Both the position numbers and the translations under genes were made by a program. Below, piece by piece: positions 47,057 to 54,488 of a stretch of 64,000 nucleotides of DNA. Below the pieces are notes generated by a model that searched no databases, was not told the DNA's origin, and saw only the letters and a list, made by a program, of their open reading frames with translations. This DNA comes from Desulfuromonadales bacterium (GTDB lineage: Bacteria; Desulfobacterota; Desulfuromonadia; Desulfuromonadales; SZUA-540): the NCBI GenBank assembly GCA_033549025.1, contig JAWSUS010000002.1:224001-288000 (forward strand), written 5' to 3'. Position 1 is the first letter of the stretch. The number at the start of each line of letters is the position of its first letter.

Positions 47057-48592
47057 GTGCTGGAACAAATCGACATGTCCATGGTGAACTGGGCGCGCGG
47101 GCAGTTTGCCCTGACCGCCATGTTCCACTGGATCTTCGTCCCCTTGACCTTGGGGCTCTCTTTTCTGCTGGCTTTTTTCGAGAGCCTCTATGTCAAGACC
47201 GGCGATGAACAGTGGAAGCGCCTCACCAAATTCTGGATGCGGCTCTTCGCCGTCAATTTTGCCATCGGCATCGCCACCGGCATTATTCTCGAATTCGAAT
47301 TCGGGACCAACTGGTCTAACTATTCCTGGATGGTCGGCGACATCTTCGGCGCACCCCTGGCCATCGAAGGCATTTTCGCCTTCTTCATCGAGGCGACCTT
47401 TTTCGCCGTCATGTTTTTCGGCTGGGATCGGGTCTCGAAGAAATTCCATCTCTTTTCCACCTGGATGGTGGCCGTCGGCTCCAACCTGTCGGCCCTGTGG
47501 ATTCTGGTGGCCAACGGCTGGATGCAGAATCCCGTCGGCATGAAGTTCAACCCCGACACCGCCCGTTTCGAGATGGAGAACTTCTGGGAAGTTCTCGGCT
47601 CGCCCGTCGCCATCGGCCACTTCACTCACGCCACCAGCTCCGGCTTTCTGCTCGCTTCCCTCTTTGTGGTCAGTATCTCCAGCTGGTTCCTGCTCAAAAA
47701 GCGGCATGTCGAAATGGCCAAACGCAGCATCATGGTGGCGGCGGTCTTCGGGCTTGTTTCCTCGGCCTACGTCGCCTTTACCGGCGATGAAACCGCCTAT
47801 ACGGCCGCCCAGGTGCAGCCCATGAAACTGGCCGCCATCGAAGGGCTGTACCAGGGGGAGGAAGGGAGTTCGCTGGCGGCGGTCGGTCTGCTGCGGCCGG
47901 ATATGCAGCCGGGGGACGACAAGGATCCCTACATCTTCGCCATCAAGATCCCCTATCTGCTCTCCCTGCTGGCCAACCGGGATCCCAACAGTTTCGTCCC
48001 CGGCATCAACGACCTGGTCTACGGCAACCCGGAGCAGAACATCGTCGGGGTCAATGCGCGCATGATCGAGGGCAAAACCGCCATCGAGCAGCTGGCCCTC
48101 TACAAGGACGCCCGGGGCAACGGGGATGAGGTGGCCGCGGCCGCAGCCCTCTCCCGCTTCGAGGCCGTCAGCGCCAACCTCGGCTACGGCTATCTCAGCC
48201 GCCCCGAGCAGGCCGTCCCCCCCGTGGCTCTCAATTTTTACAGCTTCCGGGTCATGGTGGCGCTGGGCACCTTCTTCCCCCTGCTCTTTCTGGCCACTCT
48301 CTTCTTTACCTATCGTGGCACCATCGCCAACCAGAAATGGCTGCTGATGGCGGGGGTCGTCTCTCTCTTCCTCGGCTACATCGCCCAGGAAGCCGGCTGG
48401 ATCGTGGCGGAAGTCGGCCGTCAGCCCTGGGCCATTCAGGGGCTGCTGCCGGTGCACGTCGCCACCTCCAATCTCACCACGGGTACGGTGCAGACCACCT
48501 TCTTCATGTTCCTGGGTCTTTTCACCCTGCTGCTGATTGCCGAAATCCGCATCATGCTGAAGCAGATTCACATCGGACCGGAGGGGAAATAA
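47057..48592 (+). CDS. cydA: Cytochrome bd quinol oxidase subunit I
   Basis: QFALTAMFHWIFVP, EFEFGTNW, QPMKLAA, EVGRQPW. Confidence 0.96.
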   Translation: MLEQIDMSMVNWARGQFALTAMFHWIFVPLTLGLSFLLAFFESLYVKTGDEQWKRLTKFWMRLFAVNFAIGIATGIILEFEFGTNWSNYSWMVGDIFGAPLAIEGIFAFFIEATFFAVMFFGWDRVSKKFHLFSTWMVAVGSNLSALWILVANGWMQNPVGMKFNPDTARFEMENFWEVLGSPVAIGHFTHATSSGFLLASLFVVSISSWFLLKKRHVEMAKRSIMVAAVFGLVSSAYVAFTGDETAYTAAQVQPMKLAAIEGLYQGEEGSSLAAVGLLRPDMQPGDDKDPYIFAIKIPYLLSLLANRDPNSFVPGINDLVYGNPEQNIVGVNARMIEGKTAIEQLALYKDARGNGDEVAAAAALSRFEAVSANLGYGYLSRPEQAVPPVALNFYSFRVMVALGTFFPLLFLATLFFTYRGTIANQKWLLMAGVVSLFLGYIAQEAGWIVAEVGRQPWAIQGLLPVHVATSNLTTGTVQTTFFMFLGLFTLLLIAEIRIMLKQIHIGPEGK

Positions 48593-48593
48593 T

Positions 48594-49730
48594 ATGTTCG
48601 GAAATCTTGCGCATAGCCAATTGCAGCAGCTCTGGTGGATCATCGTCGCCACCGTGGGCTCCCTATTTCTCTTCATGACCTTCGTGCAGGGGGGACAGAC
48701 CCTGCTGGCCACCGCCGCCAGGACGGAGGAGGAGAAATCCCTGGTCATCAACTCCATCGGCCGCAAATGGGAACTCACCTTCACCACCCTGGTCCTCTTC
48801 GGCGGCGCCTTTTTCGCCGCTTTCCCCCTCTTCTACGCCACCAGCTTCGGGGGTGCCTACTGGGTGTGGATTCTCATCCTCTTTACCTTCATTGTGCAGG
48901 CGGTGAGCTTTGAATACCGTCGCAAGCCGGGCAATCTGCTGGGAACCAAAACCTACGACGCCTTCCTCTTCATCAACGGCAGCGTCGGCCTGCTGCTGAT
49001 CGGAGCCGCCGTTGCCACCTTCTTCAGCGGCTCCAATTTTCAGCTCAGCGCCTACAACTCGGTCACCTGGCAGCACCCCCTGCGCGGTCTGGAAGCGGCC
49101 TTCAGCCTGTTCAATCTCTCCCTCGGCATCTTCCTGGCCTTTTTGGCCCGCATTCTCGGCGCCATGTACCTGCTCAATCATATCCACCACGATTCCCTGG
49201 AGGAGCGTCTCCGCAAAGCCGCCTTCAACAATCTGCTGTGCGCCCTGCCGTTCCTTCTCTATTTTCTCGGCCGCCTCCTGGTCATGGACGGCTATGCTGT
49301 GGAGCCGCAGACAGGGGCCGTCGCGCTGGTCGCCGGCAAATACCTGAGCAATCTGCTGGCCATGCCCCTGGTGCTGATCCTGCTGCTGGCCGGCTTGGTT
49401 CTGGTGGTGGCCGCCGTGGCCCTCACCCGCTTTTCGCCGCGACGCAGCGGCATCTGGCTGGCGGGCCCCGGGACCGTCTTCGTCGGCCTCGCCCTCTTCT
49501 TCCTGGCCGGCTTCAACCACACGGCTTTTTACCCCTCCAAATTTGACCTGCAGAGCAGCCTGACCATCGCCAACGCCTCCAGCAGCCACTACACCCTGAC
49601 GGCCATGAGCTATGTGGCGATCGCCGTTCCCTTCGTGTTGGCCTACATTGCCTATGTCTGGCGACTGATGGACGCCCGCAAACTGACCGTGGACGACCTG
49701 CAGGGCGAAGAAGCCGAAGACCTTTACTAG
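48594..49730 (+). CDS. cydB: Cytochrome bd quinol oxidase subunit II
   Basis: GGAFFAAFP, VSFEYR, SLTIANASSS; follows cydA. Confidence 0.93.
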   Translation: MFGNLAHSQLQQLWWIIVATVGSLFLFMTFVQGGQTLLATAARTEEEKSLVINSIGRKWELTFTTLVLFGGAFFAAFPLFYATSFGGAYWVWILILFTFIVQAVSFEYRRKPGNLLGTKTYDAFLFINGSVGLLLIGAAVATFFSGSNFQLSAYNSVTWQHPLRGLEAAFSLFNLSLGIFLAFLARILGAMYLLNHIHHDSLEERLRKAAFNNLLCALPFLLYFLGRLLVMDGYAVEPQTGAVALVAGKYLSNLLAMPLVLILLLAGLVLVVAAVALTRFSPRRSGIWLAGPGTVFVGLALFFLAGFNHTAFYPSKFDLQSSLTIANASSSHYTLTAMSYVAIAVPFVLAYIAYVWRLMDARKLTVDDLQGEEAEDLY

Positions 49731-49742
49731 GAGGATATCGCT

Positions 49743-49835
49743 ATGATTGCTGTACTCGTTATCGGCTGGTTTGCCGTTATTCTGGTCTCCTACAAAGGGG
49801 CTGAATGGCTGCTGAAAAAGACCGACCTGCTGTAA
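49743..49835 (+). CDS. 30-aa single-TM protein, candidate small cytochrome bd subunit
   Basis: GGAGGA RBS; MIAVLVIGWFAVILVSYKGAEWLLKKTDLL*; followed by a strong hairpin; below ORF-track cutoff. Confidence 0.72.
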   Translation: MIAVLVIGWFAVILVSYKGAEWLLKKTDLL

Positions 49836-49843
49836 GTTGTTTC

Positions 49844-49874
49844 GGCGAAGAGGAGCTTGCCGCTCCTCTTCGCC
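49844..49874 (+). terminator. Stem-loop ending the cyd operon
   Basis: Perfect 13-bp GGCGAAGAGGAGC/GCTCCTCTTCGCC; lacks a clear U-tract. Confidence 0.55.
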
Positions 49875-50042
49875 CCATTCCATCTCACTTGCGCTCCACC
49901 CGTCCCCCAAAGACCCTCCACCTGGCCCTGATTCACCGTATTTTTAAGAGGTTGCAAAAAATCCTCCGGACAGCTAGTCTATGGGGGTTTTTTGCGTGTC
50001 GGTGACAAAGGCCGGCGACTCAGCACCAAGGAGGAAAGTTCT

Positions 50043-50747
50043 ATGCCGTATGTACGTAATGTGGCCGCAATGGCTTTTCTTGTCCTGCTGGCCCTGCCCC
50101 TGGCGGCAGCGGCGGAAACCCGCTACGTGTCCGATCAGCTCGTTGTCACCCTGCGCCAGCAGCCGGCGGATCAGGCCGAGGTGATCACCACGATGCGCAC
50201 GGACACGCCCCTCGAAATCCTGGCCGATCAGGGGCGCTATCTTCAGGTGAGAATCCCGTCCGGGGAAAAAGGCTACGTTCTCAGTCAATATGTTACCACT
50301 GAGCTGCCCAAACCCCTGATTATCGATCGGCTGCAAAATGAGCTGGCCCAGCTTCAGCAGAAGCTGGCTGTGGCGGAAAAAGCCCGCGACGCCGCCATAA
50401 ACGAGCAACAAACGATCCAGGCGACCCTGACGGAAGAAAGCCAGACCACCGAACAGCAGGTGACCGAGCTGCAAACCGCCCTGGACCAGACCCGCGGTGA
50501 ACTTCAGGAGGCCACCGAGCGCTACGATACGCTGCTGGCCAACTCGCGTGAAGTCGTCAACATCACCAACGCCCGCAACCAGCTGGAAGAGGACAACGCC
50601 CGTCTAAGCGCCGAGATCGAGACAATCCGCCAAGAGAACAAGAAGCTGCTGACTACCGGCATGATCCAGTGGTTCCTGGCCGGTGGCGGCGTTTTTCTGA
50701 TCGGCTGGCTGGTCGGAAAACTCTCCCGCAAGAGAAGAAGCTTCTGA
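50043..50747 (+). CDS. SH3-domain coiled-coil membrane protein (TIGR04211/YgiM-like)
   Basis: Signal peptide, RYVSD.L..TLR, GYV, coiled coil, WFLAGGGV C-terminal TM. Confidence 0.87.
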   Translation: MPYVRNVAAMAFLVLLALPLAAAAETRYVSDQLVVTLRQQPADQAEVITTMRTDTPLEILADQGRYLQVRIPSGEKGYVLSQYVTTELPKPLIIDRLQNELAQLQQKLAVAEKARDAAINEQQTIQATLTEESQTTEQQVTELQTALDQTRGELQEATERYDTLLANSREVVNITNARNQLEEDNARLSAEIETIRQENKKLLTTGMIQWFLAGGGVFLIGWLVGKLSRKRRSF

Positions 50748-50850
50748 CGGCCACAGACGGCCGTCCTCCCTGTCTGACGCAGGAAAGCATTGACTTTCCG
50801 CAAACACTGTGTTAACCAAGCAATCCAACGTAAAAGGAGAGCTTCACGTG

Positions 50851-50946
50851 ATGTTTTCCGGCAAAGGGCACAACATGGCAGCGGCGGCAGCCGCGGCGAA
50901 GGCGGCGGCAATCGGCCGCACCTGTGCCCATCTCTTTGCTGGCTGA
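50851..50946 (+). CDS. Ala-rich leader peptide (31 aa)
   Basis: AAGGAG RBS; MFSGKGHNMAAAAAAAKAAAIGRTCAHLFAG*; in-frame GTG at 50848 is an alternative start. Confidence 0.78.
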   Translation: MFSGKGHNMAAAAAAAKAAAIGRTCAHLFAG

Positions 50947-50972
50947 CCGCAAGCGGTCCTTGAAAAGCGAGC

Positions 50973-51010
50973 AGGCCATGGGCGCAGTCGTCCATGGCCT
51001 TTTCATATTT
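50973..51010 (+). terminator. Attenuator terminator in the 5' leader of the aminotransferase
   Basis: AGGCCATGGGCG-CAGT-CGTCCATGGCCT 12-bp stem followed by TTTCATATTT. Confidence 0.82.
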
Positions 51011-51062
51011 AGCTGATTTTTCGCCGCAGGGCGACGCCACTACCAAGACGGGGAGATAGGTT

Positions 51063-52373
51063 ATGCGCAACAATATTGTGCACATCGGCGCCGGAGAACT
51101 GACTTACGAGATCCGGGCTATTGTCGAGATTGCCGAGAAGCTGAACAAGCTCGGCATGAAAACGAACATGGAAAACATTGGCGATCCTATCGCCAAGGGT
51201 GAGAAAATCCCCGACTGGATGAAGAAGATCGTCGCCGATCTGGCCATGAAGGACTGCTCTTACGGCTACTGCCCGACCCGGGGCGTGCTGGAGACCCGTG
51301 AATTTCTGGCCGAGTTGACCAACAAGCGCGGCAAAACGCAGATCAGCGCCGACGACATCCTTTTTTTCAACGGCCTCGGCGACGCCATCCAGAAGGTCTA
51401 CGGCTTCCTGCGCCGCGAGGCCCGCGTCATCGGCCCCTCGCCGACCTACTCCACCCACTCCTCCGGCGAAGCGGCCCACGCCGGGCAAAAGCCGGTCTCC
51501 TACCGGCTTGATCCCGACAACAACTGGTACCCCGACCTGGACGATCTGCGCCTGTCGATCAAATACAATCCGGCCATCGCCGGCATCCTCATCATCAACC
51601 CCGACAACCCCACGGGCGCCGTCTACCCCGAGCGCATTCTCAAGGAGATGATCGCCATCGCCAAAGAGTATGACCTCTTCATCATCTGTGACGAGATCTA
51701 CCACAACATCGTCTACAACGGGCAGTCGACCAAGCCCATCTCCGACCTCATCGGCGACGTTCCCGCCATCGCCATGAAAGGGATCAGCAAGGAAGCACCC
51801 TGGCCGGGGGCACGCTGCGGCTGGATCGAGGTCTATAATGCCGACAAGGATCCCGTCTTCAAACAGTACGTGCAGAGCATCGTCAACTCCAAGATGGTCG
51901 AGGTCTGCTCCACCACGCTGCCGCAGAAGGCCATTCCGCCCATCCTGAGCCACCCCAAGTATCCGGCCTATCTCGAAGAGCGCAAGAGCCGTTACGAGAG
52001 ATACTCCAACATCGCCTACGACCTGCTCAAGGAAGTGCCCGGCATCAAGGTCAACCGTACCAACGGCGCTTTCTACATGAGCATCGTCTTTGAAAAGGGC
52101 CGACTCAACGACCGCCAGAGCCTGCCTATCGAAATTCAGGAAGTCAAAAACCTGGTGGAAGGCCTGGTCGACCAGCCCGGCGTCTCGCTGGATAAGCGCT
52201 TTGTCTATTACCTGCTGGCCTCCACGGGCATCTGCGTCGTCCCCATTTCCTCCTTCTGCACACCGGAAATGGGCTTCCGCATCACCCTGCTCGAACGCAA
52301 TGAAAAAGAATTCACCAGCATTTTCGAACGCATCGGCGCCAGCATTACCGCCTATCTTCAGTCCGCGCCCTAA
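51063..52373 (+). CDS. PLP-dependent class I/II aminotransferase, probably alanine aminotransferase (AlaA-like)
   Basis: YEIR, NIGDP, INPDNPTG, DEIY, GISK..PWPGARCGW; Ala-rich leader supports the substrate guess. Confidence 0.85.
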   Translation: MRNNIVHIGAGELTYEIRAIVEIAEKLNKLGMKTNMENIGDPIAKGEKIPDWMKKIVADLAMKDCSYGYCPTRGVLETREFLAELTNKRGKTQISADDILFFNGLGDAIQKVYGFLRREARVIGPSPTYSTHSSGEAAHAGQKPVSYRLDPDNNWYPDLDDLRLSIKYNPAIAGILIINPDNPTGAVYPERILKEMIAIAKEYDLFIICDEIYHNIVYNGQSTKPISDLIGDVPAIAMKGISKEAPWPGARCGWIEVYNADKDPVFKQYVQSIVNSKMVEVCSTTLPQKAIPPILSHPKYPAYLEERKSRYERYSNIAYDLLKEVPGIKVNRTNGAFYMSIVFEKGRLNDRQSLPIEIQEVKNLVEGLVDQPGVSLDKRFVYYLLASTGICVVPISSFCTPEMGFRITLLERNEKEFTSIFERIGASITAYLQSAP

Positions 52374-52378
52374 TGGAG

Positions 52379-52403
52379 AGCCGGCCCTCGGGCCGGCTTT
52401 TTC
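52379..52403 (+). terminator. Intrinsic terminator after the aminotransferase
   Basis: AGCCGGCCC-TC-GGGCCGGCT followed by TTTT. Confidence 0.75.
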
Positions 52404-52424: not shown

Positions 52425-53783
52425 ATGACGACCTTCATCAAACCCAACCTGGAGCAGAGCATCGACTCTCGACAGGATCTCGTCGCCTACCTTTCCCGCG
52501 GTGCCAAGCCGCGGGAGAGCTGGGGCATCGGCGCCGAAATGGAAAAACTGGTGGTCGACGCCGAAACGGGCCAGGCCGCTTCCTATGACCGTATCAGGGC
52601 CCTGCTTGAATCGCTGCTGGCTGACGGCTCCTGGGTCGGCATTTACGAAGGTCCCCATCTCATCGCCCTGAAAGACGCCTCCTCCTCGGTGACCCTGGAG
52701 CCAGGCGGCCAGCTGGAACTCTCCGGCGCCCTCTGTGCGGACATCCATTGCTGCCAGCAGGGATTTTCCCGTCATATCGACGGCATCATCGGCGCCGGAC
52801 GCACCCTCGGGCTGCGTTTTCTCGGTCTGGGCGTACAGCCCTTCAGTCGCCTGGAAGAGATCGGCTGGGTTCCCAAGGCCCGCTACGATATCATGGGGCC
52901 CTACATGCAGCGCACGGGCGACATGGGGCCGCGCATGATGAAGCAGAGCGCCGGCCTGCAGGTCAACCTCGACTACAGCAGTGAGGCGGACTGTTTCCGC
53001 AAACTGCGTCTGGCCTTTCAGCTCTCCCCGCTCTTCTACGCCCTCTTCGCCAATTCCCCCCTTATGGACGGCAGGCCCAGCGGCTTCCTCTCCACCCGGG
53101 GCGAAATCTGGGCGCGCACCGATGCCGACCGCAGCGGCCTGGTCCCCCGCCTGCTCCTGCCGGGAGCCACCTTCGAGGACTACGCCGACTACGCCCTCGA
53201 GGTACCGATGTATTTCATCATTCGCGATGGGAAGTATGTCGATTTCACCCGGGAGCGCTTCAGCTTTCGTCGTTATCTCGAGGAAGGCTTCGGTCTCCAT
53301 CGTGCCACCCTGGGCGACTGGGATCTGCATCTCTCCACCCTCTTTCCCGAGGCGCGCCTGCGCCCGCAAATCGAGATCCGCACCGCCGACAGCCTTCCTT
53401 CCCGGACGACCCTGGCGGTGGCCGCCCTGGTCAAAGGGCTCTTTTACGATGACCAGGCCTTCGCTGACAGCCAGGCCCTCTTCGACAGGGTGGATTTCGA
53501 CACCCTTACCTCTGCCTACCGCCAGTCCTGGCGTCTCGGGCTGCAGACCCCCTTCGGCGCCGGCACCCTGCAGACCCTGGCCCGCGACATTCTGGCTATT
53601 GCCCGCGACAGCCTACAGCGACAAAAAGCTCTTGATGAAAGCGGTCAGGATGAAACCCTCTACCTGCGGGAAATCGACGAAATCGCCCTTACGGGCAAAA
53701 CCCTGGCCGAGCGCCTGCTCGCGCGCTGGCAGGGCTCTCCTGCCGACAAGCTGCACGCCCTCTATGACCATTGCGGCTTCTGA
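52425..53783 (+). CDS. gshA: Glutamate--cysteine ligase (GCS2 / plant-like type)
   Basis: IGAEMEK, TLEPGGQLELSG, LQVNLD, ALFANSP, HLSTLFPEARL, IEIR. Confidence 0.92.
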   Translation: MTTFIKPNLEQSIDSRQDLVAYLSRGAKPRESWGIGAEMEKLVVDAETGQAASYDRIRALLESLLADGSWVGIYEGPHLIALKDASSSVTLEPGGQLELSGALCADIHCCQQGFSRHIDGIIGAGRTLGLRFLGLGVQPFSRLEEIGWVPKARYDIMGPYMQRTGDMGPRMMKQSAGLQVNLDYSSEADCFRKLRLAFQLSPLFYALFANSPLMDGRPSGFLSTRGEIWARTDADRSGLVPRLLLPGATFEDYADYALEVPMYFIIRDGKYVDFTRERFSFRRYLEEGFGLHRATLGDWDLHLSTLFPEARLRPQIEIRTADSLPSRTTLAVAALVKGLFYDDQAFADSQALFDRVDFDTLTSAYRQSWRLGLQTPFGAGTLQTLARDILAIARDSLQRQKALDESGQDETLYLREIDEIALTGKTLAERLLARWQGSPADKLHALYDHCGF

Positions 53784-53888
53784 CCCGGCCGCCCGACTGT
53801 CCAAGTGCACAGTCCGCTCCTGTTTCCCTGCAAGCCCATCTTTACGCATCGACACGTAGGCATCCCTGGTTAGAAGGGATAGAGTCAG

Positions 53889-54010
53889 AACCATCAAAGG
53901 CTTGTTGTGGCAGGCGAGCCGGCGATACAAACCTCCTTTCGTTACCTCTGTTGGTTATCGGGCCGGTCAAAAGGGATGCCTCCCCCACTTGACCGGCCCG
54001 AAATCTTTTC
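53889..54010 (+). ncRNA. Putative sRNA copy 1
   Basis: -10 TAGAGT at 53880; 5' hairpin; ACCTCCTTTC at 53931; 13-bp terminator stem plus TCTTTTC. Confidence 0.65.
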
Positions 54011-54128
54011 AGCTCCACCTGCGGCGATCGCCCCGACTGCGCAAAAGCACAGTTCACCAGCGTGGCTTCTTGTCCCAAGGTTTACGCAATGGCACGTGGA
54101 AAAGCGTGACGCCACCCGGTATAGTCAT

Positions 54129-54250
54129 AACCATCAAAGGCTTGTTGTGGCAGGCGAGCTGGCGATACAAACCTCCTTTCGTTATCTCTGTTGGTTATCG
54201 GGCCGGTCAAAAGGGATGCCTCCCCCACTTGACCGGCCCGAAATCTTTTC
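54129..54250 (+). ncRNA. Putative sRNA copy 2
   Basis: -10 TATAGT at 54120; nearly identical to copy 1. Confidence 0.65.
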
Positions 54251-54369
54251 AGCCGCCCTCGCGGCGCTTCCCCCCCACTGCACAAAAGCACAGTTCAGCT
54301 GCGTGGCTCCTTATCCCAAGGTTTACGCAATGGCACGTGGAAAAGCGTGACGCCACCCGGTATAGTCAT

Positions 54370-54488
54370 AACCATCAAAGGCTTGTTGTGGCAGGCGAGC
54401 TGGCGATAACTTCTTCATTGAAAACCTCCCGAACGCTCAAGGCCGAATGCAGGGATGCCTCCCCCTGAATTCGGCCTTGCGTCTTTTC
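54370..54488 (+). ncRNA. Putative sRNA copy 3 (diverged 3' half)
   Basis: -10 TATAGT at 54361; same 5' part; AAACCTCC retained; different terminator stem with the same GGGATGCCTCCCC loop. Confidence 0.62.

Follow-up and report, generated by a model that had tools for sequence, protein, structure and literature searches.

A short alanine-rich open reading frame (ORF), followed by an intrinsic terminator, stands directly before an aminotransferase gene in a 64,000-nucleotide (nt) stretch of a Desulfuromonadales genome, which is called the window here. All sequence positions refer to this whole stretch, and its features are read on the + strand. On sequence grounds the element is a real, conserved leader-peptide attenuator. 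We consider it likely (probability about 0.72) that it works as a ribosome-mediated transcription attenuator tuned to alanine and that it controls a single AlaA-like aminotransferase gene. The parts of this leader are present in the window and conserved among relatives, two of its helices covary, and the distance between ORF and terminator is kept within narrow limits.

The leader, its gene and its conservation

The leader ORF (50851-50946) starts with ATG and has 31 codons and a TGA stop codon (50944-50946); it reads MFSGKGHNMAAAAAAAKAAAIGRTCAHLFAG. Its regulatory codons (50878-50910) are ten Ala codons in eleven, with GCA three times, GCG six times, GCC once and a single AAG among them. The same run also folds as a GC-rich hairpin. 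A Shine-Dalgarno sequence, AAGGAG (50834-50839), precedes the ATG at 50851 by 11 nt and an in-frame GTG at 50848 by 8 nt. Downstream of the ORF, a hairpin scan and folding both identify an intrinsic terminator (50973-51010). Its stem of 12 base pairs (bp; 50973-51000) is formed by a 5' arm, segment 3 (50973-50984), a loop (50985-50988) and a 3' arm, segment 4 (50989-51000); the U-rich tail TTTCATATTT / UUUCAUAUUU (51001-51010) follows, and 52 nt lie between terminator and gene. The terminator folds with -24.6 kcal/mol (z -6.3), and none of 200 shuffles folds as well.

Upstream of the ORF there is a promoter-like site (50790-50818) composed of TTGACT (50790-50795), a 17-bp spacer and TAACCA (50813-50818), with TG at 50810-50811 making the latter an extended -10 element (TGnTAACCA). 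A simple promoter scan of 50400-51400 listed no promoter. Support for the site comes from its conservation, since the motif TTGAC, a spacer of 17-18 bp and TGnTAnnn[A/T] recurs in 51 of the 88 distinct leaders described below, 40-86 nt 5' of the Ala window. An earlier note, made by a model from the sequence alone, had proposed the promoter-like site, the AAGGAG, the 31-codon ORF, the Ala run and the terminator, and all five are found at the positions given here.

The gene behind the leader (51063-52373) encodes a protein of 436 amino acids, which matches NCBIfam NF005334 (PRK06855) with 755.8 bits at a cut-off of 443. The name of this family is the generic 'pyridoxal phosphate-dependent aminotransferase'. 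Among solved structures the closest are AlaA, the glutamate-pyruvate aminotransferase of E. coli (4cvq, E 1.7e-46), as the description of the gene as AlaA-like had implied, and the archaeal 1xi9 (E 6.3e-46), deposited as a putative transaminase, which we take to be the alanine aminotransferase of Pyrococcus. Two tyrosine aminotransferases come next, and four sequences reach E 1e-20 or better. The genome holds one member of the aminotransferase family, along with three distant aminotransferase matches. That the enzyme synthesizes alanine we infer with good motive.

Conservation was examined in a sample of the order with 41 genomes, namely the window's own, three of its genus and 37 others. All 41 carry an orthologue of the aminotransferase with 73-100% identity, and upstream sequence was fetched for 30 loci. 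Each of these 30 has an Ala-rich small ORF upstream of the orthologue, and the interval from this ORF to the gene contains a strong hairpin with a U-run. In an evenly drawn sample of 201 genomes of the phylum, 31 have an orthologue at E 1e-100 or better; among 28 new loci from this sample the leader is present in nine and absent in 19. Named genomes contributed 80 loci, 76 of them with usable upstream sequence, and 59 of these 76 have the leader, mostly in Desulfuromonadales. By record title the carriers include Desulfuromonas, Trichloromonas, Geoalkalibacter, Desulfuromusa kysingii DSM 7343, Pelobacter, Malonomonas, Geothermobacter, Pelovirga, Geopsychrobacteraceae and Geobacteraceae. Once identical sequences were merged, the 98 entries came down to 88 distinct leaders, which are related to each other, so that counts among them are not counts of independent events. 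The comparison of orthologous upstream regions that had been proposed as a check thus came out in favour of the element, with Ala-rich small ORFs at 30 of 30 loci of the order sample and 88 distinct leaders overall.

The terminator type occurs once in this genome. A strict form of its pattern is present in 34 of 81 genomes of the order, 30 of which have a single copy, and wherever coordinates are comparable the site adjoins the aminotransferase gene. A crude scan of this genome for other Ala leaders gave no convincing candidate.

Probable translation of the leader and its alanine codons

Several features of the leaders fit translation. The in-frame stop codon lies 20-48 nt ahead of the terminator stem in 88 of 88 leaders (interquartile range 25-32), and in the other two frames the first stop is found 15-50 nt ahead of the stem in just 12 of 69 and 26 of 69. 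The pipeline required a terminator 0-95 nt from the frame-0 stop, which bounds frame 0 and leaves the tight spread unexplained. The stop codon itself varies (TGA 60, TAA 16, TAG 12). Two anchors located irrespective of frame, CGAGC and the GYCCRT that most closely precedes the terminator, are separated by a multiple of three in 32 of 42 leaders, at distances that include 33, 36, 39, 42, 45 and 99 nt. A start codon was picked in all 39 leaders examined, some of these automatic choices being uncertain, and a Shine-Dalgarno-like word precedes it in most. Ala positions in 39 leaders use all four codons (GCG 112, GCA 81, GCC 60, GCT 41). Stop position, triplet spacing of the anchors, Shine-Dalgarno sequence and start codon, and the free third positions of the Ala codons would all suit an ORF that is read by ribosomes.

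Two observations on RNA structure concern the ends of the ORF. The minimum-energy folds place its Shine-Dalgarno sequence and start codon within a weak hairpin (50836-50859; GGAGAGC...GUUUUCC), and from these models such a hairpin could limit translation of the leader. At the other end a small hairpin, GACCGCAAGCGGUC (50945-50958), begins inside the stop codon in the fold of the window and is given as an observation only. Of the 88 leaders, 73 have a helix around the stop codon, but its energies are no better than those of shuffles (mean z -0.35), and we make no claim for a functional hairpin at this place.

Alanine dominates the codons that matter for sensing. As a sensing window we took 14 codons, the last of them being the most downstream one at which a stall does not obstruct segment 2, the partner of segment 3. 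In 39 leaders Ala accounts for 294 of the 546 codons in this window (54%), followed by Arg (52), Ser (33) and Ile (28); in the long ORFs of the genome about 9.8% of codons are Ala. In a steric model only RNA downstream of the stalled ribosome was folded, and 'paired' was not limited to the segment 2 partner. There, 83 of 88 leaders contain four or more Ala codons at which a stall keeps at least 60% of the terminator 5' arm paired before the 3' arm is made. Among all codons with this effect Ala accounts for 44%, compared with 15% of the codons in the tail. GCC is the commonest Ala codon of long ORFs (57%), yet it occurs once among the ten in the leader of the window. In one relative (L010) the run reads GCG GCU GCA GCA GCA GCC GCA GCA. 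We infer that alanine is the signal and that ribosomes stall at these codons.

The codon composition also bears on a different reading, which we judge improbable, namely that the leader-peptide attenuator reads general translation speed or stress and that its Ala richness is a side effect of a GC-rich GCN hairpin. The Ala run is itself a palindromic hairpin, and RNA structure alone would favour GCN repeats; a GC-rich helix could, however, read Arg or Gly in another frame, and the Ala frame is used in 88 of the 88 (related) leaders. Besides Ala, the sensing window contains an Arg codon that is almost invariant and codons for Ile, Thr, Ser and Met that vary, against which stands the share of Ala, 54% of its codons while third positions change. 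A precedent exists in the upstream ORF (uORF) of mycobacterial whiB7, which responds to starvation for many amino acids (PMC10274678). The gene regulated here, by contrast, is an AlaA-like aminotransferase and no stress or resistance gene.

The nearly invariant Arg codon deserves separate consideration. Of the 88 leaders, 72 have an Ala run interrupted by Arg-Ala, and 69 of these 72 use CGA for the Arg, a codon that makes up about 8% of Arg codons in the long ORFs of the genome. The codon after the mid-run CGA is Ala GCU, GCG or GCA (L005-L133). No helix was found that explains the invariance of CGA-GCN. A programmed slow codon at CGA is possible. Slowness through decoding by inosine only is weakened as an explanation by the presence of tRNA-Arg(UCG) besides tRNA-Arg(ACG) in the genome.

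Near-invariance of CGAGC, together with strong conservation of the core GGCCAUGGGC, would also be expected of a metabolite- or protein-binding structured RNA (riboswitch-like, or acting by protein-dependent antitermination) in which the small ORF is incidental. We regard this as very improbable. The window's own genus is without CGAGC and has Lys (AAG) in its place, but ORF, segment 2 and terminator are all retained there. The Ala codons vary freely at their third positions, and the Shine-Dalgarno sequence and start, the in-frame stop at a fixed distance (88 of 88) and the mostly triplet spacing of anchors fit translation. A published 'aspC motif' before putative aminotransferases has been filed as a riboswitch candidate (PMC11109978) and may or may not be the same element as the present leader. 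A search of 50300-51500 with Rfam release 15 (4227 models, leader and T-box families included) gave no relevant match at E up to 10, and 20 orthologue loci gave none at gathering score. Neither alternative accounts for the leader as well as an attenuator that is tuned to alanine, whose RNA switch is considered in the following.

Helices and the proposed switch

Three helices can be formed by the leader RNA of the window. Segment 2 (50922-50942) lies within the 3' end of the leader ORF and has pairing partners on both sides: CUGUGCCCAU pairs with segment 3, and UGUGCCC with UUUGCUGG pairs with segment 1. Segment 1 (50858-50872) consists of CCGGCAAA and GGGCACA and is the anti-antiterminator partner of segment 2 in the minimum-energy folds. 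The 1:2 helix joins 50866-50872 with 50923-50929 and is extended by 50858-50865 with 50935-50942; the antiterminator, 2:3, joins 50922-50931 with 50978-50987; the terminator is 3:4. Sequence and folds thus agree with the three helices that the earlier note had described in the window. The consensus of segment 2, UGYCCRU-N-GCCU, is a copy of the terminator 3' arm.

Covariation was assessed in an alignment of the 88 leader sequences (A2), with slid positions and 500 shuffles as controls. For the terminator 97.0% of 1052 cells are paired (21-55% in slid controls), and both partners change in 10 of 12 pairs; on each of five measures the observed value lies beyond all 500 shuffles. The antiterminator is paired in 79.5% of 1134 cells, compared with 32-45% for slid controls; both partners change in 10 of its 13 pairs, a number that 13 of 500 shuffles reach. 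Its 60 double-change cells and its covariation score (0.259 against 0.215) are reached by none of the shuffles. A smaller alignment (A1), in which many rows begin too late to include segment 1, gave an antiterminator result in the same direction. Of the covarying helices predicted earlier, terminator and antiterminator are borne out by the 88 leaders, and 1:2 is clear in the window but weakly supported across leaders. In several relatives 1:2 closes a domain around the Ala hairpin, with partners that differ between lineages.

A chance pairing of a GC-rich open frame with the ordinary terminator of the upstream gene is refuted for practical purposes because the whole layout is conserved in relatives: although the genome has 111 short frames between stops in which 7 or more of 11 codons are Ala, 12 of them with a terminator-like hairpin within 110 nt, and although the upstream SH3-domain gene, which ends at 50747, would need a terminator, the layout tracks the aminotransferase and not the SH3-domain gene (upstream of the leader in just 10 of 88 leader-bearing loci), the leader is kept across many families and its helices covary.

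Energies were calculated for successive lengths of the window's transcript. The 1:2 helix closes the minimum-energy fold of 50860-50935 (-40.2 kcal/mol, z -3.25) and is also part of the minimum-energy fold when the transcript is too short to include segment 3. Through 50990 the two states are almost equal, with -71.9 for 2:3 and -70.9 kcal/mol for 1:2, so that 2:3 is the minimum-energy state once segment 3 is made. Through 51006 the combination of 1:2 and 3:4 reaches -87.0 kcal/mol, compared with -81.9 for forced 2:3. In these models the energy profile is that of a balanced switch governed by the order of folding.

The proposed attenuator would operate as follows. Transcription would start at about 50825, and a ribosome would translate the 31-codon leader. 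With Ala plentiful, it would pass the Ala codons and segment 2 and reach the stop codon between segments 2 and 3. Segment 2 would then be occupied or held away from segment 3, the 12-bp terminator would form and polymerase would stop near 51005. The terminating ribosome would leave the core of segment 2 uncovered but would separate segment 2 from segment 3. With Ala scarce, a stall within 50878-50910 would mask or separate segment 1 and free segment 2, which could pair with the emerging 5' arm of the terminator; no terminator would form and the aminotransferase would be transcribed. Without translation, segment 1 would pair with segment 2 first and the terminator would form.

The following observations weigh against an attenuator of this kind or against alanine as its object. 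Compared with shuffled segment 2 in the 88 leaders, 1:2 has a mean z of -0.62, with 11 leaders below -2, 29 below -1 and 29 above 0. When ribosome footprints are blocked and the full transcript is folded at equilibrium, the terminator is kept in almost every leader. In a transcript cut before the 3' arm, the 5' arm is paired about equally with and without a stalled ribosome (means 0.69, 0.71). Folding under ribosome footprints, which the earlier note had suggested, therefore gave no ribosome dependence at equilibrium. A thermodynamic switch is ruled out by these footprint-blocked folds, and regulation would have to be kinetic or steric because equilibrium folds show no dependence on the ribosome. 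Classical attenuators are generally held to work kinetically and sterically. The strong invariance of CGAGC and GGCCAUGGGC at the nucleotide level indicates constraints beyond coding. The leader is absent from 17 of the 76 named orthologue loci, three of them metagenome-assembled genomes (MAGs) of Desulfuromonas type. Seven public runs labelled as RNA contain parts of the stretch, and in 4 of 4 runs examined (2 studies) metatranscriptome contigs span leader, terminator and gene. These bridging contigs could be read-through RNA or contaminating DNA; contigs are blind to 3' ends and neither support nor contradict termination. As to the enzyme, the curated 'alanine aminotransferase' model PRK08363 gives 201 bits at a cut-off of 534, and because this score falls below the cut-off, 'AlaA-like' is a fair label and 'alanine aminotransferase' would exceed the evidence. 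Finally, an alanine dehydrogenase gene is located elsewhere in the genome (G000:C15:62439-63536; TIGR00518, 538.8 bits, above cut-off), and its predicted product is a second route between pyruvate and alanine.

Genomic surroundings and comparison with known systems

Directly 3' of the aminotransferase gene, sequence and folding reveal a terminator-like hairpin with a U5 run (52378-52402; -22.6 kcal/mol, z -2.9), which a simple terminator scan did not list. Because of this hairpin the aminotransferase gene is probably a one-gene unit. The next gene (52425-53783) resembles plant-type glutamate-cysteine ligase (405 bits, below the cut-off of 463). Such a gene is found downstream of the aminotransferase in 64 of 88 leader-bearing loci, despite the hairpin that lies between the two in the window. 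Directly 3' of the glutamate-cysteine-ligase-like gene is a tandem repeat (53883-54408) with a period of 240 bp, 2.2 copies and 94% matches, which gives rise to mirrored small ORFs. The upstream neighbours of the leader (47057-50747) encode subunits I and II of a cytochrome bd oxidase and the SH3-domain protein (TIGR04211).

The 17 named loci that lack the leader are mostly orthologues of Desulfobulbia type with 69-72% identity; in addition there are one MAG labelled Myxococcota and the three Desulfuromonas-type MAGs, which are AT-rich. These three retain the promoter motif and have a plain 5' untranslated region. The same three leaderless loci (L077, L082 and L101) have in common a palindrome with ACTGTATACA about 150 nt upstream of the promoter motif, and this palindrome may be a protein-binding site that replaces the attenuator. 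At locus L037 a more distant orthologue (72% identity) is preceded, at about 90-55 nt, by a GCCAUGGG-type hairpin and its U-rich tail, and there is no Ala-rich ORF. At another locus (L014:224-300, minus strand) a c-di-GMP-I-GGC riboswitch aptamer, RF03167, scores 61 bits (gathering score 59) about 1.2 kb upstream of the orthologue.

Alanine is among the most abundant amino acids and feeds cell-wall synthesis, and its control is poorly known. To our knowledge, it is missing from the textbook list of leader-peptide attenuators. If the element is what we propose, the textbook set (Trp, His, Phe, Leu, Thr, Ile/Val) would be extended to alanine. A wider picture is tentative, and we doubt that all its parts hold together: direct Ala attenuators on AlaA-like genes may be a widespread, undescribed class of amino-acid gauge across Desulfuromonadales, with CGA-GCN as a built-in slow site that sets sensitivity and PRK06855 as the main alanine-making transaminase of these anaerobes. 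An order-wide direct Ala gauge would offer a testable answer to the question of how these anaerobes balance alanine. Moreover, the leader would provide a functional label for a large aminotransferase family that has only a generic name, as well as a natural alanine-responsive switch usable as a reporter.

The enterobacterial leader-peptide attenuators trpL, hisL, leuL, thrL, pheL and ilvL terminate by default, and stalling leads to read-through, as is proposed for the Ala leader. Common to both are a short translated ORF in which codons for the regulated amino acid are clustered, a terminator just before the gene, and an alternative upstream partner for the terminator 5' arm, a partner which itself can pair near the regulatory codons. 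In contrast to these systems, the Ala leader would sense alanine and targets a single aminotransferase gene instead of a pathway operon; its segment 2 lies inside the ORF and its stop codon between segments 2 and 3; its hosts are Desulfuromonadales and some other Desulfobacterota, and it has no similarity to any Rfam model, those of leaders included.

The alaS T-box riboswitch of Gram-positive bacteria (PMC4695836) also reads the charging of tRNA-Ala and chooses between terminator and antiterminator. It binds the tRNA directly, with no ribosome or leader peptide. T-box models of Rfam gave no match at the leader. The ilvB motif was first taken for a riboswitch and later recognised as a uORF attenuator with terminator and antiterminator stems (PMC11109978); it resembles the Ala leader in this architecture and differs in sensing branched-chain amino acids. 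The same source, a survey of non-coding RNA in 50 genomes, reports the aspC motif upstream of putative amino-acid aminotransferase genes, with more than 1000 representatives, mostly environmental. Like the Ala leader, this motif stands directly upstream of putative aminotransferase genes; unlike it, the motif is depicted as a junction of three stems in which few nucleotides are conserved. By description the two may or may not overlap. PMC4833913, PMC2965389, PMC8632094 and PMC3543383 do not mention an alanine leader. Searches of full-text literature, whose coverage leaves out most subscription journals, gave no account of an alanine leader either in Desulfuromonadales or immediately upstream of an aminotransferase gene.

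The earlier note knew of no characterised alanine example. One exists in the whiB7 uORF of mycobacteria, which acts via a transcription factor (PMC10274678). This uORF is enriched in Ala and is termed 'Ala leader' by its authors. Stalling is proposed to swap a rho-independent terminator for an antiterminator, and WhiB7 then raises the alanine aminotransferase aspC. Both systems have an Ala-enriched uORF, a proposed swap between terminator and antiterminator, and an output that includes an alanine aminotransferase or, in the present case, an AlaA-like one. The whiB7 uORF differs in that it controls the transcription factor WhiB7, which activates aspC together with resistance genes, and in that it is longer, mixed in composition and also answers to starvation for other amino acids and to antibiotics. 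The leader of Desulfuromonadales has a compact Ala run and sits directly on the aminotransferase gene, the gene downstream of it being a match to NF005334 and not a WhiB-family gene. The hosts belong to different phyla, and nothing points to a common origin of the two leaders. The logic of the mycobacterial 'Ala leader' would then have a simpler, direct counterpart in an unrelated phylum.

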